Shown here: piece by piece, positions 10,301 to 62,982 of the stretch
How positions within the stretch are numbered: the stretch's first letter is position 1
How the letters are laid out: each line of letters opens with the position of its first letter
NCBI GenBank assembly: GCA_012295275.1
Contig: CM022665.1
Span: forward strand, 4,960,001-5,024,000
Source: Chrysomallon squamiferum
Taxonomy: Eukaryota; Animalia; Mollusca
Direction of reading: 5' to 3'
Length of the DNA: 64,000 bases
Made by a program: the position numbers and the translations under genes
The notes under the pieces: generated by a model
The model's database searches: none
Told to the model about the DNA's origin: nothing
What the model saw: the letters and a program-made list of their open reading frames with translations, nothing else

Positions 10301-11911
10301 TTTTGCGTGAGAAAATGTATACGTGTGTGTATAGTGAGATACATGTGTTTGTTTGTTTATTTTATTTTATTTATTTATTTTTCTTTTTTAATTTTTTTTT
10401 TTTTTTTTTTTTTTTTTTTGGCATTATCTGTACGTTTACATTAGTTTACGTGGTTTGTGTAGATATTTGTGATAACAAATTCAGGAAAGTGAAGAGGTTT
10501 CCCCCAGTGCATTGTGTTGTTATCATTTCGCACTCTAGTATAATTATTGTTTTATTATTAAAACAGTGAAAAAACACTGATCCACTGCATTGCCCTTTAA
10601 GGTAAAGGAATTAAGAGAAAGATAGTAAACTTAGTTACTGTATGTATTTCGTACATAATTATTCTTACTCATTTGTTTAGAGTTTTATTTCTTATGTTAT
10701 ACTTTTTTGTTACATTTAATTTGATTATTCTCGTTTAGCTTCAAATGTTTAATTTTATGTGATGTTATTTATGTGTCTATCCAAAGGTTTGTCTTGTTTC
10801 TTTATTTTTTAAAATTTACAGTATCTATCCAAAAGGTATTTTATTACTAAACTAGAATTTAAGAAAACATTTTTATTTTTTTAGATTAAAGGGTTTTACA
10901 GTAGTTCTATGAAAATTAATGAGTTATTTTCCATTTATTAAAAATAGAATTTACGATGAAAACAACAACATTGTCGTCAAAGATCATGCACCATTTTATT
11001 GAATCTTTACAGAAAATAGAATAAGAAATTAATCCGTGGGTTACAAAAAAAAAACATTTTCATATTTGGATCGTCTTACGTTAGAATTGGTGAATAGAAA
11101 TATGTCGGAGAACAGCCTTTAGAGCATTATTAAAACGGATTTATACATACACAAAAAGTTTCAAATATTAAATCATACACATACAACACACAACACATAG
11201 AAATATGTACAGCCAGGGATTATACATAAAAGTTTCAAATATTAAATCAAGATGATGGGTCAAACGGTTTCAGGGAATATGTATAAAATAACCAACTAAA
11301 TTCAGGTATTATGTATATTACCTAACATACACTAATACACAAACACACGAACATATACATACACTAACAAAGACATGTATACACCCAGACACACACACAC
11401 TAAAACACACACACTCACAAATCTCATACATAATTTAAAATCAAAGAAACATGGCTGATTTTCATAATCTCATCATAAAGATATTTTCAAGATAAGTAAA
11501 TTTATGTATGCATTCAGTTATGTTTTAAATTATAATGAACTATGTTTGTAATGCATACAAATAAATGAAAATTATTCATACAGGTCGACGAGTACAAAAC
11601 CATAAAATTAACTGTATTAATAACCTGATAAAGTGGACGGGTAGATAAAATATATAAAAAATATCTGGCGTTATTTTATTTTATTTGTTTATTTATCTTC
11701 TTTTTTTTTCTCTCTCTCTTTTTTTACTTCATAAAATGACAAGTGAATAGATGTTGAGAAGCAAAGAAGGAAAGAGATTATAATGTTTACATAAGATCGA
11801 ATTTTGTAATTGGTTAAACAGCCAGGGCTAGTGTCCAGGCAGGGGGGGGGATCGGCGTACGCTGGCTGTCTGCACGGGGGAGGTGCGGTGTTTTCTGTCC
11901 GATACTAGCCA

Positions 11912-12101
11912 CCCTGCCCGTCTCCCTCGCCCACTGGCTGTCTGCCCCGACCCTAGACAGCAGCCCTTTTTTTTTAAGATTTAGAAACAAGAACTAGACC
12001 CAAGATGAAACTATAGACAGTTCAAGTTCCTAAATCTAAAAATAGTAAATAAATTAGGTCTGCATAACAAGGCAGACAGCCAGTGCGGGCGAGGGGCAGG
12101 G
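11912..12101. repeat. Imperfect ~190-nt hairpin, probable left terminus of the first element
   Basis: CCCTGCCC..CCTCGCCCACTGGCTGTCTGCC (11912-11946) pairs with GGCAGACAGCCAGTGCGGGCGAGGGGCAGGG (12071-12101). The inner arms 11971-11995 and 12019-12042 also pair. GCGTACGC lies at 11855-11862. Confidence 0.75.
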
Positions 12102-12119
12102 GGGGGGATAGAATCTGAT

Positions 12120-13720
12120 ATGAAACACCAGAGCATCACCCCCGTGCAGACTAGTTCCATTGAAGTTGTCAAGAATAAGAAGTTGGAATTATTTTTGAAA
12201 CGGAAAGGAGTGGAAACTGTACAAAAAGTCAATCATTTAGAAAACTTTGAAAACAACGAATCAGACGAAGATACAGAAATTGTAAGCAGCTTGTTGCAAA
12301 TTTCCAAAGCAACAATCGAAAGAGGTCTCGGCAGCTGGGTTCTCCGCAACCGAAATCGATCTGACAGAATCTGTGAGAGAAAAGGACCTGGCAGATTGGG
12401 AAGATTCAGATACATGAAAATGCAGCCTAATTACGATGGATTGGTAAGAGAACTTTTCAAAAGAAAGAAAGAATTACAAACGGATTCATTCATCGAATAT
12501 CTTCGACGTGAAGAAAATCCGAGTGAATATCCGCCAGGACGAAAAGTTGCAACTCCTGAAGAATCAGCAACGAACTTCGTAAATTAGCAAATATAGATGC
12601 CTTACACTTAGCAGGCAAGCTGATAGCTACATTGGAAAGCATGGATATCAGTAAAAACTGCATCTTTGTTTAATGTCTTTCAACAGTCAGCAAGACATAC
12701 TGGTTTATTGAACCGTTTAGTCTTTTGCCATCCAATGATGTAGGCTGAATAGAAAAAGACCAAGAATTTTCCGTTGAGTGTTGTGCAAACAAAAGATTCA
12801 TTTTAATTGACGATGTCGAGATAACGGAGGCTACAGTCGAGCGGTACGAGGAACTTTTCTCTGATAACAATGTGGAACACCAGTTCGAATCCTGTTCTGG
12901 ACAAATTGTTAAAAAGATACCCGTAATAATGTCTTATCCGAAGTTTAATACGCTGTTTAATGTTGACATACTGAATGTTAAACAATGGATTCTTAACAAT
13001 ATGCAACAGATTGCCATCAGCTGTCAAAATGCCATTGTTAATTATTTTGAAGTTGTAGGTAGAAAGCAATCTCTAGCTCAGCCTTTGTATTTGTTTTGGT
13101 TGAACTTTATAAACAAAGACAGAATTACTGAAGAAAAAGGCATAGTGAAAAATAACCAGTTCGACTACAGGAGACGATTCAAAAACGGAATAGCATTTGA
13201 CTGTTCCGACGAAACCGTTCTCTTATTCGCTTACCGATATCTTAGGCATGACAAAGTTACAGTACGTTCAGCGAAGGTAGCGGCTTATTAAGTAAACCAT
13301 GGATGGGAGCTATAACAGGCAATCCGCTATCAGCAACCGGCACAGTGACTAAAACATTAACGCAGCGTAAATCTGCTTGCATTGCAGTGCTGCTCGGGCG
13401 TAACTTGGAAGACGGCAAAATTGCGCCGGATTGTCCACTTGACTTTAGATCTAATCAGATTGCTCATCCTTACCAGCCCGTGCTCGACAGCCGTCCTCGA
13501 AGAAGACGAAGAAAATCACTTAGACGCTACTCTTCGGTTTCTGCCAAACAGACTCGACCAGCACGACGAAGAAAATCTGAACAGTCCATCCCGACTAGCA
13601 GTTTGGCGCAGCATTCTTCATCGGCGATTGGAGCAGAAATTGCAAAGGCGGATACAAGAAAGACAGAATAGACAATATGGCAACATCTTACTACAGTATA
13701 ATTGTAGCACCCAACTCTAA
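12120..13720 (+). pseudogene. Gene X copy 1: NS1-helicase-like paralog with decayed motifs, continuing into a novel C-terminal region
   Basis: Joined reading across stops and frameshifts: GPGRLGRFRYMK..VATPEES..IFV*CLSTVSKTYWFIEPF..ILIDD..PVIMS, then in frame LYLFWLNFINKDR..FKNGIAFD and CIAVLLGRNLEDGKIAPDCPLDFR, which is homologous to 17086-17816. Confidence 0.7.
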
Positions 13721-14911
13721 CAATTACAATAAAGACCTCGAACTTCAACAATTGTTTAGTGGACGTTATTACGCTCCCATAATCAAGAATACATTTTAAA
13801 AATATGATAGAAAAGGTACAGTCTTTGCCACAGATGCAAAGAAGGAAGACGTCACTCGCAAATTGGTAGTCAGATGGTCGACTAAGAACGGCATCCTCCA
13901 GACTACCAGCAGAAATAAAAATCTTAAACAAATCTAATAGTTCTGACAAGTAGCTCTTATAATGATGAAATTGCTAATCCTGAAAGTTCCTTGACCAGAG
14001 AATCTCTTGTGTTTTCTCACAATGTGAAACCAATGTCATAAATTTCAGTACATACATTTTGTGCGTTCGAAGATTGTTATGACCGACTTCAGAGGACAGT
14101 GACTTTGCAGACGACTTCGACTGGCTAGAAGGACTTTCCAGTCTCCAATCTGCTCAAAGACAACAATCTCAGTCTTCGACATCTGTACAAAGTGCATATA
14201 CTATAGAAGAAGTAGTAGAAGAAGAGCAAACATTTCCATCGTATCCTCAGAAAAGAGGCATTGAAGAAGTGAGGAGAACAAACAATTAGACAAACGTGGA
14301 AATGGCAACAGAAGATTCCAACCAGAGAATTAAAGACTACGAAAATCTCTGTAAATTAACCATTGTTTCTATTATATCCGTTAATAAATCGGAAGCCTGT
14401 TCAGAAAAAAAAGGTTTGGTAGAATGGGTGCTATCCGATAAGGAAGAAAGCGATGTCATCTGTGAAAAAAACAGGCCCCGGACGCTTAGGAGGATTTAAA
14501 TACATTAAAACAAACGTAAAACTACCAAAGGACTGTAAAAGAGTTATTGGTCACGATAGAAAACAAACTATGGAAGCTTCATCGACTATATACGTCATCG
14601 AAACGTACCAGCGATCTCGAATTCGTTGAAAGTGGCAATCCCAGAAGACTGATTGCCCTATTTTATAAATTGGTGCAAGCTGACAAATTTGGACGGAATA
14701 GATATTGCTGCTAAGGCAGTGGCGATGCTTGAAAAATTAGACGTCAGTAAGAGCTGTATGTTTGTTCAGGGACCTAGTACTATCCGAAAGAGTTATTGGT
14801 TCACAGAACCATTTAACCCATTACCCTTCAGTGCCATCAGCCGAGCCGGAAAAGATGAGCCACACTGAATTTCTAGATGGAATAGAAGTCGAATATTCCG
14901 ATATAGACTGA
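13677..14911 (+). pseudogene. NS1: Parvovirus-like NS1/Rep copy A, internally deleted
   Basis: ATG at 13677: MATSYY..ELQQLFSGRYYAPIIK..VVRWSTK matches the 17869 copy (ELQQLFRGRYFYPMIK..VLRWSTK). Contains VEWVLSDKEESD and FVQGPSTIRKSYWFTEPF..RAGKDE. The HUH/Tyr segment and Walker B to motif C appear deleted. Ends EFLDGIEVEY. Confidence 0.85.
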
Positions 14912-14917
14912 ACAAAA

Positions 14918-15162
14918 CCATTCAGTATGAGAAATACGCGCATCTGGACGAGACACCCATCACCGACACGACAGGCAGCTGTATCGTGGAATCCCAGTGA
15001 GTGGTAGACATCAGAGATGCGCTCAACATCATGAGAAATTTTCTGATACCGGACTCGATTTCCCGAAAAATGACAGTGAAATTATTTGTATTCTGGAATG
15101 GGAATTGGATCAATGTTTATGAAATCTTTGACGATCATATGTTTTGTCAACTAATTTTGTAA
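14918..15162 (+). pseudogene. ORF-C paralog 1 (small unknown protein after NS1)
   Basis: MRNFLIPDSISRK..VYEIFDDHMFCQLIL* shares the NF-x8-K and [YF][ED]I-x-[DE]D-xx-F-x-Q pattern with the other two copies. AATAAA at 15192. Confidence 0.55.
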
Positions 15163-15429
15163 ATTCTCTGTATTATATTAATTTTTAATTAAATAAAACA
15201 TTAAATATACTGGGGCAATAACTATTATAGCCTTACTACACACATACTAGAATTGTCTCCCGTACGTACACGCAACCGTACGGGGTAAACAATACATCCA
15301 AAAACCCGTACGCTCAAGAGTATCTAACAACCATAGACACACGAGGCTGCTGACAAGAATTTACAGTTACCAACACATGCCTGAGATGGCATTGATAGAT
15401 GCTGCTACATTGCAAGTAAACAGTCCAAA

Positions 15430-15767
15430 ATGACTACATGAAATTTCAGACTTGCGTCTAGTCAAAATACATGAATATTCAATGCCTAAGATCATTCAGT
15501 ATAACTTTCCAAAGAAACACACATATGCTGTTTATGATCATATGGTAGATAAAATCTGTTATGAAGAAATATTTGGTTTACATTTTGTGAATTGTGTAGC
15601 ACTTAAAAACTTTAGTGACTACGGTGAAATATGGGGGAAACCTCACATGTACAAATACTTTATAAAATGGTTGCTTTGACACTTTACTGATTTATGACAT
15701 AATTGATGACTGTGTGTTCTTCCAGTATTCTCTTGGCAGTAAAAATAACTATGTTCCAATATGTTGA
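15430..15767 (+). pseudogene. ORF-C paralog 2
   Basis: KIHEYSMPKIIQYNFPKKH..VDKICY..LHFVNCVALKNF..WGKPHMYKY, then a frameshift to IYDIIDDCVFFQYSL. Aligns with 20044-20372. AATAAA at 15769. Confidence 0.75.
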
Positions 15768-15888
15768 TAAATAAATGATTGAAATGTTTATTGATTTATG
15801 TTTTGTATAATAAAATTAATATTTAAATAATTTCCGAATAAATTCATCGCAGAGTTATCTGCCCTTTTAATCGGAGTTATCTCCCCTT

Positions 15889-16327
15889 GTTCGGGTTGAA
15901 TCGGTTCGGATAGGTTCGGTTCAGACAAATGATATAGACAAAAGGATAAAAAAAATATAAAAAAATGTATTAGAAACCGTAATAGTTGTAACTGTATGGT
16001 TAGCTATAATACGGTTTATGGTTTAGAGAACATATGTTATCGAGGTAGAAGACAGAAAAGATGGTTTCACCATCGTTTTCATCTGGGACTGGGGCCGCTT
16101 TGATAGCCCGCCGCATCCTGCAAGTTCAGGGGCCTGAAGATTATCTCTTTTGGGGGTTTGGGACTGGGTGCACGGGCAATAAAAGGGCCCGAAGGAGCGT
16201 ACGCGGTTAACGGCCCTCGATTGCCCGGCACCTGATCCAAACTCCAAAAAGAAAGAGATAATCTTCAGGCCCTCGATTTGTTCTGAACCTGCAGGATGTG
16301 GCGGGTTATCAAAGCGGTCCAGTCCCA
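15889..16327. repeat. Terminal region: TTCGG-type pentamers, spacer and a 244-nt palindrome (16084-16327) centred on GCGTACGC
   Basis: TGGGACTGGGGCCGCTTTGATAGCCCGCCGCATCCTGCA...GGCCTGAAGATTATCTCTTT pairs with AAAGAGATAATCTTCAGGCC...TGCAGGATGTGGCGGGTTATCAAAGCGGTCCAGTCCCA. Apex at 16197-16204. Confidence 0.92.
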
Positions 16328-16512
16328 ACATAAGCCGGACATCTTCATTATGAAATTTCTGTCCATCCTCGAAAAAATGGATACACAAATATCAACATTT
16401 TGCATTCAAGGACCATCCACTATAGGAAAATCCTACTGGTTTGTGGAGCCGTTTACCCTTCTACCTCAGTCACACATCGGACGGGCCGGTAAGGATGAAC
16501 GGTTCGCTTTCG
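16328..16512 (+). pseudogene. NS1: NS1 helicase fragment B (Walker A region)
   Basis: PDIFIMKFLSILEKMDTQISTFCIQGPSTIGKSYWFVEPFTLLPQSHIGRAGKDERFAF, fused directly to the end of the hairpin arm. Confidence 0.88.
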
Positions 16513-17085
16513 GAAAAGAGGAATAAGACACGTGAGAAACATCAGTAAGAGGAGTAAAGCGGCAGTGTCAGATGGAGAAGATGAAGACGACGATCTATTT
16601 GGGAAACCACCAGAAACAAAAAAGCCAAAGTTGAAACTGAGCGAAAATCTGCCAGATGAGCGACATAATTGAAACCCGATTCAGAAGTCGGAAGCATCTA
16701 CAGAAAGACATATCATCGAATGGGCGTTGCAAAATAAAGATCAATCCGATGAGGTAATTGGGAAAACGGGTCCGGGAAAATTAGGAGGTTTTAAGTATAT
16801 TAAAATTCACCCAAATTACCAGCGTATAGTAAAAGAATTGTTGGCAAGTTGTGAAAAGAAAAGATTCAGTAATTTTATAGATTATCTCAGAGGGTTGGAG
16901 ATTTCTCCTATGAAGGAGCATCTGGCAATTGCCACTCCCGAGAAGAGCGCCTTCAATTTCTGGAATTGGCTGCTTCTAGCCAATATACAGCCAGATACAT
17001 GTATAATGCTTCAATACTCAAAAAGATGGATACTCAGCGTTCAACCTTTTGTATCCAAGGGCCTACCACCATCGGGAAGTCATAC
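16513..17085 (+). pseudogene. NS1: NS1 fragment C (linker to Walker A)
   Basis: SKRSKAAVSDGED..KLSENL..GKTGPGKLGGFKYIKIHPNYQRIVKE..WNWLLLANIQPD..STFCIQGPTTIGKSY. By my count 70 of 89 residues match copy D over QNKD..IQPD. Confidence 0.9.
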
Positions 17086-17816
17086 ATAACAATTTTGTAT
17101 ATTTATGGTTAAAAAACAAATTAAGTGATTTCAGTAAGTGGTCGTTTATTCACTTTGAAAAAATGCCTAAACAAACTTATGTGTATATCAACCCAACTGT
17201 CAATGATAGTTTTAAACAAGATGGAAAAGTGTTAACAGAATATAGAATTCCGCCTAGAAAACAAGCTCATGACTTCCCACAATACTTATACTGGTTGTGG
17301 ATTAATAATACAGACAGAGTACCAGACGATCATGGAATTGTTCCCTCTGACAAAATAAATTATAACAAAGTTTTAAAAAATGGATTATACTTCGACTCAC
17401 TGCCTAACGCACCTTTCGTGTATGCTCTGAATGAGATAATGCGGTGGGTGATGATTGTCACCTTCAGAAGCATTGTAGCCTATCTGTTATCGAAAACGTT
17501 AACAGATATGATCAAAAAGCAAATACAAGGAGTACAGGAAGGTCAAGGGACACCCCACGGTTTGTCAACACCGGTTGTTGGAGGAACCGAAAACAAATCA
17601 GAAGGTTGTATAGAAGTACTGTTAGGAAGAAATATAGAAGGAGGAAAGATAGAACAGTACTGCCCCATTGACTTCAGATTCAACGAACAAGACTATGATA
17701 GTGAAAAAGACCAAGACAAAACTACAGGACCGGAACATAAAAAACGATCAAATGCAAAACGATTTAAACGATCTATTCCTTATTCTCGTAACAGGCAGCT
17801 GAAGCACCGCATTTGA
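17086..17816 (+). pseudogene. Gene X copy 2 (5'-truncated; ~240 codons still open)
   Basis: RKQAHDFPQYLYWLWINNTDRV..GIV..LKNGLYFD..VAY..GCIEVLLGRNIEGGKIEQYCPIDFRFN is collinear with 13.06-13.46 kb, and is followed by an acidic then basic tail. Confidence 0.75.
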
Positions 17817-17868
17817 AATTTTAAACTCATAGTATCATCACCATAGACTTCATGTGTAAATATTCATT

Positions 17869-20043
17869 ATGGAAGAACAACTAAAAAATGGTAGTGGTAT
17901 TTTTATAGAAGTTAACGGAGTTAATAAGGAACATGATAGGGAGTTACAACAGCTATTCAGAGGTAGATATTTCTACCCCATGATTAAATCAGGGAACAAA
18001 CGCTATGACCGATCAGGCAGGCAGTTTGGCACATATGCCACGCCAGAGGATATAAAAACAAACGTAGTGTTAAGATGGTCGACTAAATTAGAAACTGTTC
18101 AAATACTGCCGAATGTTCAAACCAAAACATTTCTGTCAGGAGTTCAAACACAACAGCAACAATTTACTTATACGATAAAACAAAGAGAAACTTTGATGGT
18201 GGTCCACAGACCAAAGCAGCAGAAAAGTGACATTTAAACAGCAACTCCCCATCTTCACGTAATTGTTAACGAAACAGGTTTAGGGCATACAATACGCCAC
18301 GACAAAGAATTAAGAGCTGTAACGAGACCGTCGCAAGCTGCCCATTACAATGTTAGAGCACAAAGGTTAATTGATGTTCTCGGTTATATGAAATACCTCA
18401 AACGTCCCCAAAACGGTTACGAGTTGCTCGGAACCAACAGCAGACTTCTTGAGAAAATGTGGTTCAAATTACCGGAAGATTGCTCGAACTTGACAACAAT
18501 ACCTACATTGAAATCGATTCTTCAGCCTGAAGAAGAGGATCTTTCTGCTCCGTGGGCAACAATAGTGGAAGGAGATATTTGGGGAACCGCAGAACACATA
18601 GAACACGTCATTTAAAGCATCATCTTCCACTCCTGCAAAAGAGAACTTCAACGACTTCGATGACGACGACAACGGACCGCAACCGTCCACGTCGACATTC
18701 CGAAAACCACCGAAAGGAGACTTCGAGATAGGAAGTGACGAAGAAGAGCCAACAGCCGAAAGAACCTATGGAAATGGAATATCGCAGTATCAGAGAACAT
18801 ACCATTACACCTACTAAGGCCCTTTTTAAAAATCCACGTCCATATTGGATGTCATCACCTCTGCAGTCACAACCAAACGTTACTATGGATGATATAGTAA
18901 ATTTAGAAAATGAAGACGAAGTGTTACCAGCTATTGTTACTCAAAAAAGACAGAGACATGTCCGTACTCTGAGCAAGAGAAGCAGAGCTGCCGAATCGGA
19001 TGGTGAAGACGCTGACGACGACACATCGTCAAAACCATCTGTCGCTAAAAAATTAAAGTTAAGTGAAAATTTATGTACCATGAGCGACATAATAGAGAAA
19101 CTGATCGACAAATCAGAAGCAAGTACCGAACGCCAAATAGTCGAGTGGGTGCTAAACAACAAAGAAGAATCAGACAAGGTAATTGGTAAAACCGGCCCAG
19201 GAAAACTGGGCGGTTTCAAGTACATAAAGATTCATTGCAACTACCAGAGAATCGTAAAAGAGTCGTTAGTAAGCCAAGAGAGAAAGAAATTTAATAACTT
19301 TATCGATTACTTAAGAAAACTCGAATTACCAACAATGAAAGAAAATTTGGCTGTGGCTACACCAGAGGAGTCAGCTTTCAACCTCTGGAACTGGCTCCTT
19401 CTGGCAAACATACAGCCAGATTGCTTTATAATGAAATGTTTGTCTATTTTGGAAAACTTAGACGTCCAGCGAAGCACTTTCTGCCTCCAAGGACCAACCA
19501 CAATCGGGAAGAGCTACTGGTTTGTGGAGCCATTCACCTTAAGTCCAGTCCCACGTCGGACGAGCTGAAAAAGACGAACGTTTTGCGTTCGAGTCCTGCG
19601 TGGGACGCAGAATAATCTTAGTAGACGAAGCCAACATAACGAAGGCAACAGTGGCCAGTTACAAAAGTCTACTAAGAGGAAACGACGTGGAGGTGGAGGT
19701 GAAGAATAAACAGCCAGAGATAATCAATAAAACACATCACCCACCTTCGGACTGGATTCCAAGGACAATATGGCAGTCATCGAAAGGATGTACTTTTACC
19801 GGATAACAGAGGATCCAGAGCCATTAAAGATGTTCCTCAAGGAGGCTAAGTTCTCCAACCCCAAAATGTGGGTTGTTTTCTGGGATTTCATAAACAAGAG
19901 GAATGTCTAGCCGATTTCGAAGACGGTGCTTCGTTCGAATACCGAGACCCACAATTTACTGACGATACTGGATTCTTCAACTATCAACACCAATTGGAGA
20001 TCACAGCAGAACCCAACTTCATGATATCACCATCACCAATCTG
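17869..20043 (+). pseudogene. NS1: Near-full-length parvovirus-like NS1/Rep copy D (HUH endonuclease + SF3 helicase), disrupted by stops and frameshifts
   Basis: Reading through the TAA at 18235 gives PHLHVIV (HLH at 18250-18258) and GYMKYLKR (Tyr at 18385 and 18394). Then an acidic/basic linker, Walker A GPTTIGKS (19491), Walker B IILVDE, B' YKSLLRGNDVEVEVKNK, a deleted motif C, an Arg-finger-like IERMYFYR and NPKMWVVFWDFINK. About 725 codons. Confidence 0.92.
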
Positions 20044-20372
20044 ACTGACAGACATAGATGTATTACACGAAATAAAACTGTACGATTATTCTCTCAGACT
20101 TGTTGTTGTATAACTACCCTAGGACTCATATATTCACAACATTTGAAAAAACTGTAGATAGGTTTCTTTATTTTGAACATGAAGATTTAAAATGTGTTAA
20201 TGTTGTTTCACTTACTAATTTTTATGAATTTAATCATCTTTGGAGTAAAAGGAATATGTTTAAGTTTGTACTTGAATTTGATGACATTCTTATGTTCATT
20301 TTTGAAATTAGTGAAGATCTTGTATTTTTTCAATTATGTTTTAGAGAAATAAATCGAAATATATTGAAATAA
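20044..20372 (+). pseudogene. ORF-C paralog 3 (~105 aa, one frameshift near the 5' end)
   Basis: EIKLYDYSLR/LLYNYPRTH..VDRFLY..LKCVNVVSLTNF..WSKRNMFKF..IFEISEDLVFFQLCF. Starts at the NS1 stop. AATAAA at about 20368, 20398 and 20417. Confidence 0.78.
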
Positions 20373-20465
20373 ATTTTATTGTATTATGTCATTCGTCAAT
20401 AAATTATAACAATTTGAATAAATTATCGACTCTAGTTGTCTGCCCTTGATCACTCGGCTTGGGTG

Positions 20466-20910
20466 CTTCGGGTCGGATCGTTCGGGTTCGAATCAGGTGC
20501 CACGGCAATCACAAGGGCCTTTAGCGTACGCGACGGCCCACTTGATTGCCCGGCGCATCCAGACCCAGAGAGAGAAAAAGAAAAAGAGTAAAGGCCCATT
20601 GATTGCTCATTGCACCATTTCATTAACACACACCATGCCGGTCAATCCAAGTGGCCCCAGTCCCGGAAGAGGACAGCAGTGGAACTGCTCAAGTCTTCAA
20701 AGGTTGCCTGGCCGTTATAGACCGTGAATTTTTGCATAGGCGTACGTACAACAGTCGTACGTGTTTGTGTACGTACGTCTTTGACCCGTACGTCTGATAT
20801 GACCTTTAACCTTTAACCTTTTCAATTGATCTGACCGAACCGAACCGAGCCGAGCCGAGCCGAGCCGAGCCGAGCCGAGCCGATTCGAACCCGAACGATC
20901 CGACCCGAAG
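20466..20910. repeat. Right terminal palindrome remnant with GCGTACGC apex and (CCGAR)n array
   Basis: Perfect 29-nt inverted repeat at 20466-20494 and 20882-20910. Inner stem GGCAATC..GGGCC..GCGTACGC (20524-20531)..GGCCC..GATTGCC is homologous to the 16.2 kb hairpin. CCGAA x2 plus CCGAG x7 at 20835-20879. Confidence 0.9.
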
Positions 20911-21385
20911 AAAAAGTAAATATCCCAAGTAATTATAAACAAATTAACTGTATCATAACTGTTTGGCTTGATGCCTTTCTTTATATCTTATTTACTTGTG
21001 ATGTTTTGTGAGAAAAATGAAAAATTGGTACTGTACTTACTATTACTACTAATTCTACGATAAGTTCTACTATTTTTCTTAATACGTTCTATACCTCAAA
21101 AAGATGTACACTATTTAGATATTTGCCACTACTGCTAATGCGATTATACAACACACACACACACACACACACGATAGATATAAAATTACGAAATTAAAAA
21201 AAAAGACCGAAAAATAATGTCGGTTAATCTATAATGAATATCGACTGTTAGTGTAAAATTAAAATATAACAGAGTTGAGGAAACGTAAACATCACAAATA
21301 AATAAGATATAAAGAAAGGCATCAAGCCAAACAGTTATGATATAGTTAATTTGTTTATAATTACTTGGGATATTTACTTTTTCTT
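20908..21385. repeat. 99-bp inverted repeat (2 mismatches) abutting the right end of the element
   Basis: 20908-21006 is the reverse complement of 21287-21385. Confidence 0.9.
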
Positions 21386-22314
21386 GAATGGGATCGATTG
21401 TTTGTTTCTTTAGCAAAACACAACATATATTACTGATGTAATTTCGTTAAGTAGCTACAAAACAGAAAATGCATTGTTTACGTGTCGAGTCGCCATAGTT
21501 GTGTATCGTCAATATTTTAAAATGTTTATGCCTAATTATTTACGTATTTAGATGCCTTGGTACCAGAAAATCGGAAAATCCAGAAATCCGGAATGCCTCA
21601 GGCCCCAAGGAGTCTGGATAATTGGTCCGGTACCCGTACTACACATAAAGAAAACAACTATCACAGATATAATGATATTAGCAAACATTTGTTGATCAGT
21701 TTACATAGTTTAAAAAGTTAAAGCATTCATCTCGAATTAGAGCACTTTGCCTGAAGAAGTCATCTGAATTAGAAAATACAGCGTGCTCTCCAGTATTAAT
21801 TAATCATTCAGCAAGCGTCATACGCTGAGCAGAATCAAAACATAACAACAAACTTTGATCAGTCAAATCTTCGACGATGTTAACTACTAATACGATACAA
21901 AAACAAAGCGAAAACAGCAAACGTCAATGATACTACTACTACTAATAATGATAATAATTTCGGCTGAACACCCAGTTAATAAGATTCTTTCGTTGTTGTT
22001 TTTTTTTAATGACAGTCAACGTATACAATGAACATTATTTTGAATAAATTTCCATTATATTAATTTTTAAGTCTACGTTCAGCTTGGTAAGAACTCGGAC
22101 AGAAAAGCTACAGAAACCACGCTGGGTGAAATTGTTACTCTCAACCTATTGTTCAGAGAACGCTGAGATTATCTGAGGGAGAAGAAATTTGAAACGTGAG
22201 TATTTGTCACGACAGGTCTAACGTTATATAAGAACAACAAGTTTTACAGCTAACTACACGGTTTTCGTTCATGTTTCTAAACGAATCGACGCCGTTACAT
22301 ACTTCAAAACAAGA

Positions 22315-22836
22315 ATGTTTTTCTTGCTGAGAAAAATGATCAGCATTTTTTTGTTTTGTATTAAAATCCTGTTGAAAATTGTGCTCCTGGAATTAGGGAT
22401 CCGAAAGCATCGGCAGAGAAAAGATGGCCACACTCAGACGGATCCATTGCACGAAAGAAAATATTGTCAGGACGACACAGATGTGTCACACCAACATATT
22501 TCTCGTTTTTCAGTCAGTGAAAGTGATATTTTATCTTCATTTACAAATCGGGACAATTTCGAAAGCTTATTTACGGATAACTATATTGAAGAAATTATTT
22601 TCATTCAAGAGGATGGGGGACCAGTTTTTAAACTGAAGGACTACGTCAAGGTGCAAGAACTTAAAGAAGAAAATTTACGTTTGAAAATGAAAATATCACA
22701 GCTGGAGGATGTGTTAATGAATCTGACAGGTAATAAACAACATTCAAAGAAAAATTTCCTTAGAGGCCTATTTGCAAAATGTAAAGACACTGTGAAAAAT
22801 ACACACTTATATAATAAAAATATTAGAACAACGTAG
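22315..22836 (+). CDS. Intronless orphan ORF, 173 aa, with an N-terminal hydrophobic segment and a leucine-zipper-like coiled coil
   Basis: Non-repetitive 522-nt ORF in AT-rich DNA. Hydrophobic MISIFLFCIKILLKIVLLEL and heptads VQELKEENLRLKMKISQLEDVL. Confidence 0.5.
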   Translation: MFFLLRKMISIFLFCIKILLKIVLLELGIRKHRQRKDGHTQTDPLHERKYCQDDTDVSHQHISRFSVSESDILSSFTNRDNFESLFTDNYIEEIIFIQEDGGPVFKLKDYVKVQELKEENLRLKMKISQLEDVLMNLTGNKQHSKKNFLRGLFAKCKDTVKNTHLYNKNIRTT

Positions 22837-32400: not shown

Positions 32401-34632
32401 ATGACAAATGATGATAAATTCTTAACATTTTGTTAACCATATAGTGACCTTAGCATTAATACCATTAGCCTACATGCCAGTTGAAGATGCAACAAAGCAG
32501 TGACGAAAAATACTGACGAATTTATCTCTCAGCAGCCAAAATCTGCCTAATCCATGGGAGACATTTTCAGTCAAAGGTGTATCTCAGCCTGATCCTGTGA
32601 AACCTTGATAAACAAGAGCAGAGTTTGACTCAAACATGAGCAGTGTGTGTTCAGTTTATCCCATCCAAACCCCGGGGATTAACATGTAATGGTTGATTCA
32701 TGGCTCGTGGTTTGGAGTTTCAAGCACAAATATTCTCCTACGCAACAACAGTTAAGCAAATATCACTTAGGTTTCCGTGACATTTTTAGAAAAAAAGAAA
32801 AAAAAAGATTATATATATTTTTTTAAAGTTACTTATCAAAAGAAATTTTGCATGTTATCTGTGTATTTCTTGTATTTATTTTTATTTGTTGTTGTTGTTT
32901 ATTTTATTTATTTATACGCTCTTTTTCAGATAATTATTTATGATAAAAATGAAAACTGAATTTTAATAAAAAAAAAAAAAAAAAAAACATTTAATATGAA
33001 CCAAGCTCAATCATCATAATGATTAGAAGCTCACAAGAAAAAAAAAAAAAAAAAAAAAAAAAAGACAAGAAAACACAGAACGATAAAAACAACTGTTTCA
33101 GACTGTGAAGAAGAATTTACAACAATTAACCTTTCTTTGTATTAATTCTTTCAGACGAACGACATGCCTATGCCTGCTACGGCACTCAGATGAACTTTCT
33201 GGAAGCGTCGTGTCCGTATGGACAAGTAATCCGAGTCAACCAAGTGTTCTACGGAGCCAAACTGAAGTCGACCGAGTGTCCTAACCTAACTACTCACCAG
33301 CATTACAGACCCGAGTGCTGTACCACGCATGTTGACGACTGCATGATTTCACTGGTTCTCGAGAACAAACCAGATCCCTATTTCAAGACTTGCAATGACA
33401 AAGCAGACTGCACGATGAACTCAAGATGGCTGGACACCTCCAGCAAATGCGATCAGAAGCTGTTTCTGCCACGTACAAACTACATGGCAATGATATATAC
33501 CTGCGTTAAGGGTGAGTGTTTGCAGAGATATCACAAATACAGCTAATACGACCACAGTACTTCAGTTACATATATTTTAATTCCGTTCAGACTGCAGTAC
33601 AATGATTGACTGGTTTAATAAATTGTGTATACACGCAACGCAGAAGTATCAGTTTTGTGTATTTCGTTAAACAAAACTGGAAAATATTGTGTTTCATCAA
33701 GTTTAATATTTATATACAGTATTTATAAAACCTAAAACATCTACTAGCATACTAAAACAAAAATGTCTTTATTGTTGCTTTTTCTATGAACTGCATACAT
33801 AGAGTTTGATACAGACTGTTTGTTGTTCTTTTTTTTTTAAATAAAAAAACAGTCGTTGTTTTAGTACTTTGGTAATAGCGTTTTAATATTAAATGTGTTT
33901 TACAAGAATAAATAACAAAATGAATGGTATGACTTCTGGATTCTAATATATGTACAGTGGCACCGTTTTAATTAATGTTTAAATGTTGTTCTTGATTAAA
34001 AAAACAAAAATAGAAATCCCTATTGAAAATATTCAGCACACACTTGTCATTTATAATATTAAAACCTGTGTATAAAATTTCCTCTATGAACACTTCTTAG
34101 AAAAGACTTTCCAGAGAATTCTGCTAATTCTAATTTCTTGTATCTTTGTTTGCCTTCTCCATCTGACACTGTCACAAATTCAACATTGACGTCAATAAAA
34201 TACACTAATCATATTTGTCTTTAGGAGAGCAAACAAGCGGTAATCAATTATGTCTTTAAAATAGGTGTTTGCAACATTCACTCAATTAAATAAATAACGG
34301 AAACAACTAAAAAAAAAAGCACTAAATTTAGAGTCCCGATTGACATATTCTGTGTTTAAATTTAAACTCTGTTTATTGTTGTGTGTTCTGTTTTCAAAGT
34401 GTTCACTTTTGCAATATGCATATTCTTCAGTATTTAGAATCTTTGTTGACATCTGTTCAGATTCTGGGTTAGTTCTGTCGAAGGGTTCAGTTCAGATCTG
34501 TTCTGTTTTGTGTGCAGTTCAGTTTTTATTAAAGTCTACCTGTGGCGGTATGATGAAATGGTCTAATAAAATTATTTATAATTTCCACTTATTATTTTAC
34601 TATTTGGCGTCTTAATCCAATACTCAACAAAG

Positions 34633-42139: not shown

Positions 42140-44143
42140 GTGTTACTACTACTTTTACTACTACTACCACCACTACCAACAAACCATAATATCATAGACG
42201 TTTTTGAATTTCGGTATCAAATACTTTAATAGTAGTAGCGACAACATCAGCAGCAGCAGCCATAGATAGTGGTATTGGTGGTAGTAGTAGTAATAGTAGT
42301 AGTAGTGGTAATTGTTTTTTAATACTGAGAGAAGCAATAGCGCATAGAGAAACACTGCTAATGAGTCATTCCGTGTCAAATCACCCAATGGGTTAAACCC
42401 GACCGTCTCAGATTTTTATAAAACTTGGTATACTTGTTGACTGGGAACCCTCATATCTCAGGAACTACTGGGCCAATCTTCATAAAAGTTTGGAAACTAT
42501 TGGAGTACATTGACCTTGTGACTTTTGCTGACCTTGAAATTGACTGTGTGGATCACGTGTCCTTGAGATGACCTTTATTGAAATTTAATCTCCCACATGT
42601 TAACTAAAAAATATAAAAGTTTCCTGGGTGTAATATTTTTTGTTTAGATACAATATAGATTTAAAAAATGCACATACATAAAAATAACACCTTTTCAGCC
42701 ATTAACATCTGATTAACTAAAACCTGAATGATCAATTCTGGATGCTAGGAATCAAAAGATGAGCTTTTGGTCTCAGAGAAAATGTACATTGTAATGCATT
42801 GTATCAATCATCCATGCAGGTATGCATTTTTTAAATCTCTATTATGGCTAAACAAAAAATATTACATCCAGGAAACTTTTATATGTGAACTTTATGCATT
42901 CATGTAGGCCTACAATGTCTTACTCGATGATCAAGAAAGATGGTGATTCCTAGCATCCAGAATTGATCATTCAGGTTTTAGTTAATCAAATGTTAATGGC
43001 TGAAAAGGTGTTATTTTCATGTATGTGCATTTTTTATATCTATATTGTGGCTAAACAAAAAATATTACACCCAGGAAACTTTTATATTTTTTAGTTAACA
43101 TGTGGGAGATTAAATTTCAATAAAGGTCATCTCAAGGTCACGTGATCCACACAGTCAATTTCAAGGTCAGCAAAAGTCACAAGGTCAGTGTACTCCAATA
43201 TTTTCCAAACTGAACAAAAATGGCAGATTTGGAATCCTTGTTATATTGCCTTTTCAACAATACCAATTTTATGAAGATTGGCCCAGTAGTTCCTGAGATA
43301 TGAGGGTTCTAAGGTTGGTGGTCACACCTATTTTTGCCACAAATCTCAAAATTCGGTGGGCCATATCTCCCACACCACTGATCCGATTGGGCTAAAATTT
43401 CAGATTTGGTGCTGTGGGATCCCAGTCACCGAGTATACCAAGTTTTATAAAAATCTGAGACGGTCGGGTTTAAGTTATTTTTGTGGGGGGCGATTGGACA
43501 TGGAATGACCCTAATGTATTCTAACAGATATATTTATTTCTCATTTCTCACTATTTTTAGATGTCAAACAAACATACAACAGTTCTACACTGTGCAGACG
43601 CGGAAGTAATCAGACCAATTTCTACGAAGCCAGCTGCAAAGACAAAGTGACCAGTTCTTCGGAAGTTAGCATTATTGCTGTTACTAATGTTTGGTACGGT
43701 GCGAAACCTCGTTCTCTGCAGTGTGCTTCGAACGGTTCCTTCGACGAGTGCTGCAGTTTCATCAAAGGTCAAGACTGTTTGATTGAGCCACCTAGTGCAG
43801 GGGATTTGTTCAAAATCGCACTCGACTGTAATGGAGCTAAGTGGTGCCAGTCTCAAGGGAGAAGAATTGATGCCTCGAGCTTTTGTGAGTTCCCCAAACT
43901 CTTCAGTGGGCTTACAACTTATAGCATGTTTGAGTATCAGTGTATCAACAGTAAGTGTGTTTTCGAATTTATCGGGTTTTGGGGTTTTTTGCTGTTTTAT
44001 TTTTATTTTGTTTTTGTTTTTTAGGGGGAGTGTTGTTTTTCTTTTGTTTTTTGTTATTGTTTTCATAATTCTTAAATCATCACTCTGTCTTTGTTATCCA
44101 ACCCTCAGTCCATCTACCTTTGTATCTATGCCGCTGTCTAACT

Positions 44144-44193
<50 letters not shown>

Positions 44194-46329
44194 GGCCTGT
44201 ATGTATTTACCTACATAATAACTATCTCTGACCATCTTTCCATTTATTTATCTGTATATCTTTCTCTCTGTTCTTTGTCTTTCTGTTTGTCAATCTCATA
44301 TTTCATTTAATAATTAACTAATTTATTTATTTAGCTGGTCTCATAGAAAATATGTGCCACGGGGGTATAATTCAGGAAGGAAACGAGGTCTACATGGCGA
44401 GCAACGTATATTACATGAACAACGACAGACAAGACAACTGCTTCTGCACATTTTCTACAACGTGTGGAAGTCGAATCATCTTCGAAGCCGTTGACGTTAG
44501 ACTTGCGAGAACACCTTCTTCCCAGTGCGGTGAAGCTCTGCTGTTTTCCGATGTCAGAAACCCAACACACAACCACAGTGTTACATGTTACGACAAATAT
44601 TTACAGATGAAGACATTGTTTGAATCCCAGAGTAATCTCGCAATGGCTGATTTGACCATTCTTGACGAAAAACACAAAGGAAAAGTGTGGATAAGAGTTA
44701 AGTGTAAGTGCTACCATTTATCATAATAATACTATAACCATCCTAATTTATGAAGTGAAAAAAAAAAAAAAAAACGTAATAGAATTCATGAAGTGTACGG
44801 GTTTCCTGTCTCGTTATCTGTACGTTCCTTAATCGTATGTATAATGCCACATAACCGTTGATTAAAACTGTTGAGGCTGTCTTTAAACAAAGCATTTCTT
44901 TTTCCTGTGTTCTCTTTTATACATTATAGCTTCATCTGAAAATGCTACTATACGCCTTCTCTGTGGAATCACCACAAACACACCGATAATAGAGAAACAC
45001 ATGTGCGATGAAGACAAACCAACAACAACGACGACACCAACATCAACGACAACAACGGTGACAAACTTTGAGGATATCAGTAAGTTATAGTTTCATGTAA
45101 TCATTAATAAGACTTTCGCTGTGAGTATTTGAACATGAGATCGTCTGAGCTGATCAAAGGCTGTTATTAAACTGAAGTCATAGGTTTATGCGTGATATTT
45201 GTAATTTCAGTTTCTCTTAAAGATTATTTTACTAAGACCATAAGGAATTCATCAATTAGTATTTCATGTAATTGAACTTTCACAGAGAGGATTCGACCCA
45301 TTTATCTTTTTATTACAAAAACATGATATGTTGACGAATAAATATTCCTTCACAATCAGAACAAATTCTTTTGTTGTTTTTCATTTTCAAAATGTTCGTT
45401 CATCAGAATGCATTTAGCTAATACTGAAACAATTTTCTAAGATAAGGGTAAAATTTATAGAAATATGGAGATTCATTTGAATTCTTTACTTTTCTGCAAA
45501 CTGAAATTATTTTCACATTACCAGGTACAAAATTTTCATCATCACTATTATTACGTTTCATATTTATTCATTTTAAAATGTTAAAACTGATTTAAATATT
45601 TATTTTATTTTGTTTATTACTTACTGTTTTTCATTTGAAATTTTTCATATGTGACAAATTACAAAAACAAGGCATGACTCTTACAACTATCTACATTACA
45701 TTTACTTGGCATAAATTATTTATTTTCAGAAATGCGACCTAACTGCGATGCCCACCCTGAACAATGTGTGGAAAATGCAAAGGATCAGCCAGGTTAGATA
45801 ATTACAAACAACTGTCGATTAAATGTTACAGAGTTTAGTACAAGTGTGTCTTTTACCGTGAGTCTTTAATGTCGTATAAAAGTTAATATATTAATAGTTC
45901 ATACTATAACATAATTACAGTACCTGTACTTGAATTTTATTCAGGTATAACGAAAATGAAAAGAAAGATGTTCTGTTCTTAGCAGTGGTTGGGTATGTCG
46001 TTAGAATTTGTAGATGGAGTTACTGTTCTTTACGTATTCTCCTGTTAGAAAATCTCCTGTTTACCGGTTTGTCTGTGCTAAGTATCAACTGGATATTTCG
46101 AATGATAAAGAGTCAGTGTGATTAATAAAACGATCCCTGTGTAAAATAATAACTTTAAAAGAATCATAAAAATATTTTTTTTTTTTATAACTGTTTTAAA
46201 ATAAATAAATATGATGATTATTTTGTACATTTATTTACTGCATTCATCAAGTTTTTGGGGTGTTGAGCAATTTTTGGGTCAAAACTTTAAGCTATTTGCG
46301 TTTTCATGACAGATATACCTTAAATAAAA

Positions 46330-57400: not shown

Positions 57401-58533
57401 AACGTTGATAAACATCGATATTGCCTTTGTTGACATCACTTGATAGCATATCACTATATAGTATATGCTATTAAATAAACATTGACATTAAGAGGAAAAT
57501 AAAATTTAAAAAAAATGAAGCTGCTTGTTGCGATCTGTTTCATGAACATTATAAAAATAAAATACAGTGATACACCAAACGCGTACAAATTGTTATTATA
57601 TGTATTATATTTAATAACGAAGGGCAACTATAAAATAATTTAAAAGCCTCTGTAAATCATTAAATAATATTAGAAGGATGTATACAGAAATTCATTAAAA
57701 CTGACAAGCATTAACAATTAAACTTAAATTTACAATAACTTACTGAGGGAAAGTTTCTCCCCCCCCCCATCATTTAACAAAACAAAACCATAATTTGTGG
57801 CTCTCACAAGACGTATGGTTAAAGCAATATCTAAATATTTGAGAACAATAAGAATTTATTATAGTACTTATTTAAAACTAATTGTAGTATTCATTTTTCT
57901 TTATATCATAATAATAAACGAACAAACAAACAAAAAAAAAAAAAAAAAAACAACAACCACCCAAGAATATATATATATATACTTCAAAAATATTATTTAT
58001 TTACTTAATTATTTCCATAAATCAGTATTTGTTTGGTGTCTTTATCACAGAATTTATTTTATTTGTTCCAGTTTGTTGACTCCGAGGTTAGTTTAAAAAT
58101 AAAACAAAACAAAACATTGTAACATTAATTACATGAACAGAGGAAATCAAACTAGAATTAAATTAAAATTAGCATTGCAGTAGTAAAGCAGCAGAATTTC
58201 ACAGAATAACAGCTATACTATAGCCTACAGGTAACTAAACTACTCAAAAAATTACACTAAAGATTAATAAGAATTGCCAAAAAACCAAGATAAACTCTCC
58301 CCAAAAACATAAACATTGTTGATTATCAATCTATTTTAATGAGTTGCATACTAAATTGCAAAGGAGTATTTTCATTCTGTTGAAATAATTTTTATAAAAA
58401 GAAAATTGATCTTAATTTGATATTAAACTGTTTTAACGCAGACATTTGAAATTACATGCTAACCTGATTTTTCATTTTATTTGATAAAACAATATAAACT
58501 TATTCCTTTCTCGTATTTTACAGATTTTACAAA

Positions 58534-59782
58534 ATGCCTTCCACTAGAAGCAGCTTCATGCCATCTAGAAGATCATCTGGACAGAGACTGTCTAATCCCA
58601 AAAGTCAGATAGTGAAAACACCAAATAACAAACTTGTTAAATCATCATCTAGTTTATCTTCTGAAAAGGCCAAACCTGAAAAATCTCGACCTCTTAAAGC
58701 AGGCAGAAAACTGTCAGAAAATCTGGACACTGATTTACCAGGTTCTCCAAAACAAACCCCAAAACAAGCGACAACAGTCAGACAAAAGTCAAAGAAAGAA
58801 ACTGTCAAAGAAAAAAGTTCTGATTTCTGTGTTAAAACTGAAAAAACAAATCTCAGCAGGGATGTATCACTGCCTAATTATGAAGATGGTACAGGAAGGA
58901 AATTTCAAAAACTGACTAAAACAGATAAGAAAAGCATGTCCAATATCAGTTCAGAAAAAGATCTGAACAAAGAGGATTTAAGTGAGTCACAAAAGGAAAA
59001 TGCTAAGCATCAGAGTTTAACCCTTTTATCCGATTCAAAAGTTAAAGGTAAAAAAAGAGGAAGACCACCAAAGGAAGCAAAGACTGAGGAGAAGAAAATA
59101 TCAGAAGTTGACAAGTTAGTCAGTGATGAATCAGTGATTCAGAAAGAAGATTTATCTGGTAAACATATGCAGGGATATTTTGATATCACTGTTAAAAATC
59201 TTATAAGTAAATAATAACATAGGTATGATGAAGATTATTTGGATAATATTTAGATTGTTTCTATAATTTGTATATTTCAGACACAATTTTTTAAGGAAAT
59301 AGTCTGTTTGTTCAACTTTAGTTTATTAATTTTATTTCTTTGTTTGTTTGTTTGTTTGTTTGTTTATTTCTTATCAAATTCTTATACTGTTTGAATGGTA
59401 AACATTGCTATTTAGTTGTTCATCTTTTGCATATTCATATTGTGATCTTTATTTTTTATTTTTGTTTAATTGTCAGCAGTTAAGCCTGAACAATCAAACT
59501 CATCTGCAGATGATTTCTCACCAAGAAGAAGTGGCAGAGCAGTTGTACCTAACAGACGATATCTCGATTCAGAAGAGGATCACATGGTCAAAAAGAAACC
59601 TAAGAAAGGTACCTTATGTTTTTCTTATTTATCATTAAATTCATATAATAAAAATAATAATAATAATAATAATAAAGCTCTACATTTTAATTTCACTATA
59701 ATTAAAACATTGCAGATATTTTCAAAATATTATATAAATATTTTTGGACATAAAACAACTGCATACAGAATTTTTTTAATTG

Positions 59783-59846
<64 letters not shown>

Positions 59847-60888
59847 GTTGTTGTTGTTATCATTTGTTTCATCTGTCAGTGAAAATTTAATGCAATAGTT
59901 CATAATTCAAGAAATCATGTTTGTAGCTGACTGCAAAATTTACACTGTATTGCAGATATTAAGTAATTATAATATGGGTTTTTGTAAATCATTTACATGT
60001 TTAAAATGATTTATTGCTGTAAGAAACTTGTTAACTGAAACAAGTATTTTTAATTATGGTTTGCTGTGTTTGTATGTATAACTTAAAACAATGACAGTTA
60101 ATTATTTAAAAAATATAACCTGCTAACATCAGTCAATAAGCTTATTAAATTTCCCTCCAGGAAAAAACCCAAAAACAAAACAAAACAAAACATTAACTGA
60201 GAAGTTATCATTTTATTCAAATAAAAAAAAAATGAAGAAAAAAAGAAGTCATTTTCAGTTCTGTACAGTAATTGGAAACATCTGATTTACTCATTTCAAA
60301 GTATCAATCAATATTTTATTTCAAATGTTTAAATTGTTCAGAGGTGACTGCAAAAAAGCTAGAGAAAAAAGAGCTAAAGTTCAGTCCTGGATGGTCAGTC
60401 AAATCACAAAGAAAAAGGTATGACTATTTTTTTACAAATATATTTTGACATTATTGCCATATGTTGTTAACTCAGAGAGGTGTGTGAGCAAGAATGTATA
60501 TTTGTGCCATAGATGTTAACAAATGGAAAATTGATTTAAGTTACAGAGTAAATTACTTCATATCTTGTAGTTGTAGATCTATTGCAAAGGGAGTAAATCA
60601 TTTTTAAAGGATATTAAATATGTTTAGCAGTTTTAATGATTATGAGTACAATGTGAACATAGGTTTTCAAAGAGATACCGATTATAAAATTAAAATAGGA
60701 GAAATGGCTGCTATGGCAAAATGTATGTGTGAATAATTATGTCTATTTAACTGCACCAAAAACACATAAATTACAAATGTATATAATAATTTAATAAATC
60801 TTCATACATTACATGTTAATTTAAAATATGTATCATTTTGATTTCATTTACCTAGCATTTAATGTACAGAACAGTTATAAGTGATAAA

Positions 60889-62942: not shown

Positions 62943-62982
<40 letters not shown>

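Follow-up and report, generated by a model that had tools for sequence, protein, structure and literature searches.

A cluster of parvovirus-like pieces, integrated and since decayed, occupies 11.8-20.9 kb of a 64-kb stretch of animal DNA (Chrysomallon squamiferum, contig CM022665.1; the whole 64,000-nucleotide stretch is referred to as the window). The pieces belong to an undescribed parvovirus-like lineage, known from this one decayed locus, in which NS1 is preceded by a duplicated helicase gene without the HUH endonuclease domain (gene X) and no gene for the capsid protein VP lies downstream of NS1. In the literature searched, with most subscription journals, Repbase and supplements outside its scope, neither such a lineage nor any parvovirus with a duplicated HUH-less helicase gene was described. 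We put at about even the chance that a parvovirus-like DNA carrying X, NS1, a short open reading frame (ORF-C) and a hairpin was packaged by a capsid from a separate VP segment or from a helper parvovirus. The locus itself is a dead fossil derived from at least five related sequences.

NS1 and its relatives

Among 14 ORFs tested, one (19543-19803) matched the Pfam family Parvo_NS1 (E 1.1e-8). When a profile built from seven pieces of the helicase region was searched against 1.84 billion representatives, 187 matches reached E <= 0.001, and the five top matches (P0002-P0006) were far ahead of the others (E 1e-39 to 1e-24). Four of them are full-length proteins with HUH and superfamily 3 (SF3) helicase domains (589-707 aa), the fifth is a 354-aa fragment, and none is named. 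Pieces of 17869-19907, the NS1 of the right-hand unit (unit 2), fell in order along the profile of these relatives from position 18 to 594; the protein aligned with intact relatives from end to end and retained 27 of 31 clade-invariant residues.

The HUH part of NS1 had no match in Pfam. In an alignment of the window piece with the four full-length relatives, the HLH motif and the downstream YL columns were invariant or nearly so. The SF3 assignment was consistent across several comparisons: the relatives matched Parvo_NS1 (E 1e-9 to 1e-19), the atlas neighbours were NS1 clusters at 0.96, and the helicase profile had its best matches in PDB with Rep40/68 of adeno-associated virus (AAV; E 0.0014). 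Together with the hairpins described below, these results support the proposal, made earlier by a reading of the letters alone (the sequence-only reading), of an HUH + SF3 parvovirus-type replicon with hairpin ends.

The window pieces and the five relatives formed one clade, with support of 0.986 in a large tree (5 window rows and the 133 proteins, out of 154, in which Walker A could be recognised) and of 100/99 and 98/94 in IQ-TREE runs on 19 selected matches. The trees hold no classified virus, and hence no Acheta domesticus segmented densovirus (AdSDV), and do not assign the clade to a subfamily. Of 30 clusters looked up, 3 were named, all as bivalve genes, and the bivalve matches fell outside the near clade. 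The 655-707 aa genes of near relatives are found on contigs of 2850, 3243 and 3445 nt; since other NS1 matches also lie on contigs of 2161-6151 nt, we did not use these small contigs as evidence for NS-only molecules. A word-based search with an NS1 piece retrieved 0 of 575 candidates, and one with the alignment of relatives found only itself among 7995 scored, so this type of search is insensitive here. Scans of viral contigs and of metagenome contigs gave no confirmed relative.

Within the P0047 cluster (P0047 and P0155-P0162), seven of nine members lie on contigs of 0.5-2.5 Mb and five are full length (788-793 aa), which makes the cluster a candidate parvovirus-like element, present in multiple copies and active until recently, in the assembly of some eukaryote. 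On chromosome-scale records, the long NS1-like ORFs P0038, P0150, P0151, P0167 and P0168 carry host-gene annotations; one of them is from Mya arenaria and four are from Mactra antiquata (records of four different lengths).

Gene X, a paralogue of NS1

Gene X is an NS1 paralogue that lacks the HUH domain and combines an SF3 helicase with a C-terminal extension of its own. The sequence-only reading had taken it for an ORF of unknown kin and had placed its start in the left-hand unit (unit 1) at 13 kb. Both statements have to be replaced: the gene begins near 12120, at the left palindrome, and pieces of its copy 1 matched the NS1 profile of the relatives at positions 309-418 (E 2e-12) and 431-592 (E 2e-27), with no HUH part. 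Copy 1 comprises a linker, a pre-helicase region, an SF3 helicase and an NS1-type tail. The helicase runs in frame into the segment that it has in common with 17088-17816, which is followed by two conserved cysteines and a basic tail. X grouped with the NS1 copies of the window and apart from the five relatives, with support of 95/84 in the pre-helicase region and 83/73 in the helicase, and so arose by duplication within this lineage.

We asked whether X could instead be an artefact of host rearrangement, with 3' pieces of NS1 joined in front of NS1 after integration. The locus is rich in deletions and joins, and X copy 2 directly follows the fragment 16513-17087, which breaks off after Walker A. 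Set against this, the cores of X in units 1 and 2 share 28% identity and the C-terminal parts 45% (the NS1 N-termini are 49% identical; 0/200 shuffles each), identity of the cores at codon positions 1, 2 and 3 is 0.52, 0.58 and 0.29, and the junction between core and extension is conserved. A direct comparison of the X core with the unit 2 NS1 tail was not significant, the homology of X and NS1 being established by the profile match from the helicase side, and X would therefore have diverged long ago as a gene of its own. The artefact is largely refuted, and we give it almost no credence.

The fragment 16513-17087 might be the N-terminal half of X copy 2, with which it is colinear; its Walker A is intact and it is 78% identical to NS1. 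Because its variable linker is conserved, however, a sister NS1 is the likelier identity.

The catalytic half of X appears to have changed faster than the rest. Identity of copy 1 to unit 2 NS1 falls from 41/98 to 22/95 toward that half (p 0.006), whereas the identity of P0002 to the same NS1 rises from 30/112 to 39/99. For the C-terminal half of X, a word search matched 0 of 1779 candidates (lengths 63-424 only), an atlas search gave no usable match, and an AlphaFold model from a 3-row alignment was unusable (pLDDT 39.4).

Right termini and the absence of VP downstream of NS1

The order NS1 tail, ORF-C is present three times (14.9-15.2, 15.4 and 20.1 kb). ORF-C copies at 15.4 and 20.1 kb are 32% identical (0/200 shuffles), the NS1 C-termini in front of them are similar (0/2000 shuffles), and the position of the NS1 stop is common to both; at the nucleotide level, 15330-15924 aligned with 19941-20496 (349/538 nt, score 344 against 255 for the best of 100 shuffles). 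The unit 1 remnant of ORF-C was weak (4/2000 shuffles against the 15.7 kb copy and 99/2000 against the 20.3 kb copy).

From the NS1 stop it is 404 nt to the terminal junction in the 15.4 kb copy and 373 nt in the 20.1 kb copy. With the hairpin so close there is no VP gene after NS1, as the sequence-only reading had held when it saw no room for one. The conserved junction that it had noted, AATAAATT..TCG, is indeed found in two places, at 15837 and 20417 (two of three matches in the window). Its failure to see a capsid-sized ORF or the phospholipase A2 (PLA2) motif HDxxY was likewise borne out: both HDxxY matches in the window lie outside the locus, and the longest stop-free stretch of the locus is 278 aa on the + strand and 148 aa on the - strand. 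Two of its arguments carry no information. Several parvovirus genera lack PLA2, so that its absence is silent on VP (PMC11357303), and AATAAA, with 169 occurrences in the window, means nothing alone.

A VP cassette on the right side of the same molecule, encoding a T=1 jelly-roll capsid, is a criterion of the Parvoviridae, and none was found at this locus. It could be that the capsid is present and unrecognised, with ORF-C (alone or spliced) or the C-terminal part of X forming a tiny or divergent jelly-roll. ORF-C stands at the usual place of VP, is rich in aromatic residues (19% F/W/Y) and, like the X extension, folds with low scores (pLDDT 36 and 39, respectively; the ORF-C model, at 36.5 from a 3-row alignment, was unusable), and the VPs of different subfamilies are described as having no sequence similarity (PMC13426907). 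On the other hand, ORF-C has at most ~130 codons in two independent copies compared with 378 aa for the small AdSDV VP (PMC10267136), and X is mostly helicase, with fewer than 200 residues remaining, many of them basic tail. No ORF of the locus matched a capsid protein in Pfam or PDB, and searches of both with X, ORF-C and minus-strand ORFs gave chance-level matches only. A hidden capsid in these genes is, in our view, very unlikely.

Hairpin termini and the left end

The terminal hairpins seen in the sequence-only reading stood out clearly from 40 shuffles each, with z -15.7 for 16060-16350, -8.4 for 11810-12160 and -6.7 for 20440-20915. The region 15837-16330 is a single terminus and matches the reverse of 20910-20481 in three blocks. 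At 20417-20910, a core lies between inverted pentamer arrays and is flanked by a perfect 29-nt inverted repeat (20466-20494 / 20882-20910), a form that would be expected of a tail-to-tail replicative junction.

The left palindrome (11818-12151) lies directly before X and is the one left end at the locus. It did not match the right ends by blastn. Two motifs, both chosen after the sequences had been seen, are common to the three hairpins: GCGTACGC (three of four window matches; left copy at 11855) and G[CT]T[GA]TCTGCCC (three of three; left copy at 11937). The locus thus holds hairpin termini suited to a linear genome of ~4-6 kb, the left hairpin being seen once, and the summed parts of the replicon come to ~4.7-4.9 kb.

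The right arm of the left palindrome overlaps the first codons of X, where the frame is open from 12009, a point that the sequence-only reading had left out of account. The palindrome is the natural left terminus or, possibly, a fold-back made at integration, since the arm overlaps X codons and the arms are only 68-74% complementary. A fold-back would allow a one-piece parvovirus whose VP, upstream of or opposite X, was lost in both units. There is a single left end to judge from, the left part of unit 2 is rearranged, and the complementarity of the arms is about what the decay of unit 1 would give; megaparvoviruses, moreover, have extra cassettes upstream of NS1 and genomes of 6.4 kb (PMC13426907). 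This scenario has to contend with the two motifs that the left palindrome has in common with the right ends, with the lack of any VP-like piece in the at least five integrated fragments, and with the right-hand position of VP in all described genera according to a review (PMC11357303). A VP added to the present parts would also take the genome beyond 6 kb. We regard such a loss as improbable, but it is at the left end that the no-capsid claim is weakest.

Layout and history of the locus

The sequence-only reading had described two separately diverged units. Its common order of X and NS1 on the + strand in two diverged units was upheld (similarity 0/200 shuffles each), X and NS1 adjoining in both with gaps of 4 and 52 nt, but the ORF-C that it had assigned to unit 1 is weak, and the units are not clean. 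The locus contains pieces of at least five diverged NS1-like sequences (Table 1), including two extra NS1 fragments at 16.33-17.09 kb, and the NS1 of unit 1 is without its Walker B region.

Table 1. Features of the parvovirus-like locus, in window coordinates
Feature	Position	Strand	Remarks
Left palindrome, unit 1	11818..12151		Axis near 12007; arms ~68-74% complementary; z -8.4
Gene X copy 1	12120..13671	+	HUH-less NS1 paralogue; profile matches; broken by stops and frameshifts
NS1 of unit 1	13676..14920	+	Heavily decayed; N-terminus to Walker A, short C-terminal tail; Walker B region missing
Short ORF-C remnant and AATAAA (15192)	14921..15200	+	Weak in shuffles
Spacer (three CGTACG motifs) followed by the C-terminal tail of another NS1 copy	15201..15433	+	Tail 0/2000 shuffles
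ORF-C copy 2	15434..15836	+	~110-130 codons; aromatic-rich; broken; matches 20.1 kb copy
Right terminus	15837..16330		PolyA junction, TCGGN pentamer repeats, spacer, long stem, hairpin core; GCGTACGC at 16197
Two rearranged NS1-like fragments	16331-16512 and 16513-17087	+	78% protein identity to unit 2 NS1
Gene X copy 2, C-terminal half	17088..17816	+	242 codons, open
NS1 of unit 2	17869..20044	+	Full length, broken; HLH at 18250, catalytic Tyr region, Walker A, B, B', tail
ORF-C copy 3	20045..20416	+	Homology to 15.4 kb copy
Right terminus, opened tail-to-tail	20417..20910		Junction, pentamer repeats, core (GCGTACGC at 20524), spacer, inverted pentamer array

In 11 of 12 copy pairs, third codon positions were 26-44% identical compared with 58-96% at second positions; the twelfth pair, an ORF-C remnant of 13 codons, was not significant. 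With third positions near saturation and second positions conserved, the copies diverged as working genes, under purifying selection, and decayed later. They represent at least five distinct sequences at the time of integration. As X and ORF-C were also under selection, the plan X, NS1, ORF-C, hairpin is old and no product of decay.

Host setting and integration

The window is AT-rich animal DNA with many microsatellites; the 11.8-20.9 kb stretch has 36-44% GC in most 1-kb bins and a positive AT skew. Sequencing runs were available for two organisms (A and B). In all three runs of organism A analysed at 80% likeness, a threshold that copies less than 80% alike would escape, depth over the locus equalled that of the flanks, as for single-copy DNA. 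One contig (run X6) extends from the host flank at 9804 into the locus as far as 16769, and no contig in the three organism A runs spans the entire 11.8-20.9 kb stretch. Half or more of the locus words were present in 7 of 10 listed runs (organism A, three studies), and none of the 10 was an RNA run carrying the locus. In the one run of organism B, the locus and most of the flanking DNA had no coverage. Alleles of organism A differ across the locus by single-nucleotide polymorphisms and small indels, up to ~2%.

One organism A run has a 77-nt deletion within X copy 1 (12683-12761), and other runs of this organism have deletions of 13-24 nt near 15.4-15.8 kb. Decay of the locus is continuing and is polymorphic between runs.

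These data bear on a second view of the lineage, as a capsid-less rolling-hairpin replicon (a nuclear plasmid or an element resembling a transposon, like PEVE and PIVE of planarians) that never formed particles, used X and ORF-C for replication or maintenance and integrated occasionally. Such a replicon would account for the lack of VP at three right ends and beside the left hairpin, for intact NS1 relatives on long contigs (P0004, the P0047 cluster) and on Mactra antiquata and Mya arenaria chromosomes, and for an X that may be catalytically impaired. NS1-like integrated elements, PIVE and DENSOV_HM, have been described (PMC3198968).

Active transposition in this host is not supported, as the locus has the same depth as its flanks; at 80% likeness, the dispersed copies expected of a capsid-less transposon of the PIVE or DENSOV type were not seen in any of the three runs, nor was an intact copy of the replicon in the organism A runs examined. 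No target-site duplication was present at the locus beyond one chance 6-mer. The presence at one locus of five or more sequences whose synonymous sites are saturated suggests that copies arrived repeatedly from outside; the parts together would fill a capsid, and the bivalve matches lie outside the near clade. We therefore hold a capsid-less replicon to be possible, on the unlikely side. The broader proposal, that there is an undescribed class of parvovirus-derived, capsid-free, hairpin-ended animal replicons in which a duplicated, HUH-less and possibly ATPase-dead NS1 helicase has replaced the capsid gene, and which spread as nuclear linear DNA integrating repeatedly in mollusc-like hosts, is similarly tentative and, to our minds, rather doubtful.

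Several other features were seen around the locus. A 99-nt inverted repeat (20908-21006 / 21287-21385, 98%) begins exactly at the end of the viral terminus; it is host DNA duplicated in inverted orientation and adjoins very high-copy repeats at 21.1-22.1 kb. Just to the right, an open frame of 204 aa at 22222-22836 includes a short stretch resembling a coiled coil and had only chance-level matches in Pfam. A 725-nt element at 42487-43211, whose 268-nt arms are 97% complementary and which contains a 62-nt internal repeat, is likely a young foldback or an element of the miniature inverted-repeat type. Cys-rich exon-like ORFs at 33130-33543, 43515-44021 and 44322-44723 probably belong to a host lectin/CUB-type gene; the first had a weak SUEL lectin match below the cut-off (E 0.043). 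This match and the bivalve genes among the more distant NS1 matches are slight hints of a molluscan host. Charged, low-complexity open stretches of 238, 142, 404 and 320 aa at 58498-59895 and 61557-63998 (+ strand) are likely large exons of a host gene, and the three that were scanned had no Pfam match.

Comparison with known systems

AdSDV, a Brevihamaparvovirus, is a precedent for a split genome. Its ns segment (PMC10267136) resembles the DNA at this locus in having an SF3 NS1 on hairpin-ended DNA without VP, unlike hairpins at its two ends and a small ORF of unknown function. It differs in length and content, with 3316 nt carrying NS1 and NS2, whereas the parts here sum to ~4.7-4.9 kb and include a second SF3 paralogue. 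AdSDV also has a VP segment, whereas no VP partner is known here.

AAV Rep52 and Rep40 have no endonuclease domain, and packaging requires them (PMC8428402). Like X, they are SF3 helicases without the endonuclease that stand beside a full HUH + SF3 initiator, but they are made from an internal promoter of the same ORF (PMC8428402), whereas X is a distinct gene, 40% identical, that lies upstream of NS1. A C-terminal part peculiar to X, and changes to the ATPase motifs in the only copy where these are present, are further differences.

The two SF3 ORFs of the locus also invite comparison with PEVE of planarians. That element reportedly has two Rep-like ORFs and no known capsid, and its two helicases are said to be mutually unrelated, whereas X and NS1 here are close paralogues. 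No named PEVE protein was among the matches.

PEVE/PIVE, the Hydra element DENSOV_HM and an acorn-worm repeat are likewise invertebrate sequences with parvovirus NS1-like genes, extrachromosomal or integrated (PMC3198968). The acorn-worm repeat (PMC3198968), unlike the present locus, has a VP1 domain, which counts against the view of a capsid-less replicon. The Swazi bat-associated megaparvovirus lineage is similar in being divergent, partly known from endogenous viral elements and equipped with extra cassettes upstream of NS1; it differs in having VP downstream of NS1, a PLA2 ORF and upstream genes that are not helicases (PMC13426907).

A proposed capsid supplied in trans

The sequence-only reading had offered two alternatives, the NS segment of a segmented parvovirus and a capsid-less replicon. 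Packaging by a capsid from a second segment, as in AdSDV, or from a helper, as for a satellite, is the reading that we favour, because the DNA is parvovirus-sized and the domain content of X is that of AAV Rep52/40. Replication was likely by rolling hairpin. On the model of established parvovirus biology (PMC11357303), the pentamer repeats would be the binding site of NS1, which would nick and unwind the hairpin, and the inverted repeats on either side of the 20.5 kb core would mark a replicative dimer junction. X may fill the space taken elsewhere by VP, keeping the total at a parvovirus-like size, and, perhaps catalytically weak, could partner NS1 in packaging or in an oligomer.

A number of observations weigh against a capsid in trans. 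X copy 1 retains 14 of 30 clade-invariant residues, compared with 27 of 31 in unit 2 NS1 (p 0.001), and its Walker A, B', motif C and arginine-finger positions are altered, a poor fit to a packaging motor. The loss may reflect decay, since the decayed unit 1 NS1 beside it keeps only 7 of 11 such residues (difference from X, p 0.48). Neither the X extension nor ORF-C was present in any of the 150 matches examined, so that this locus is the one known example of the three-gene plan. Neither a VP segment nor a helper was found, and nothing VP-like lies elsewhere in the 64 kb; no second segment with matching termini was seen within the window, and host contigs had no terminus-focused search. Two of the five near relatives sit on contigs of 161 kb (P0004, 589 aa) and 70 kb, which would suit a genome-resident element too, and more distant matches lie on bivalve chromosomes or in several near-identical copies on megabase contigs.

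The lineage matters because the AdSDV paper calls that virus the first bipartite parvovirus and the family is defined by its NS and VP cassettes. The five public relatives make the question of gene content directly testable, and accession lists such as those of PMC5013282 may include further ones. If a capsid in trans is correct for this second, unrelated lineage, the split between replication and capsid genes would have arisen more than once; if the DNA was capsid-less, parvoviruses would have yielded capsid-free replicons. The division of labour between Rep78 and Rep52 would then have been reached here by gene duplication and not by an internal promoter.

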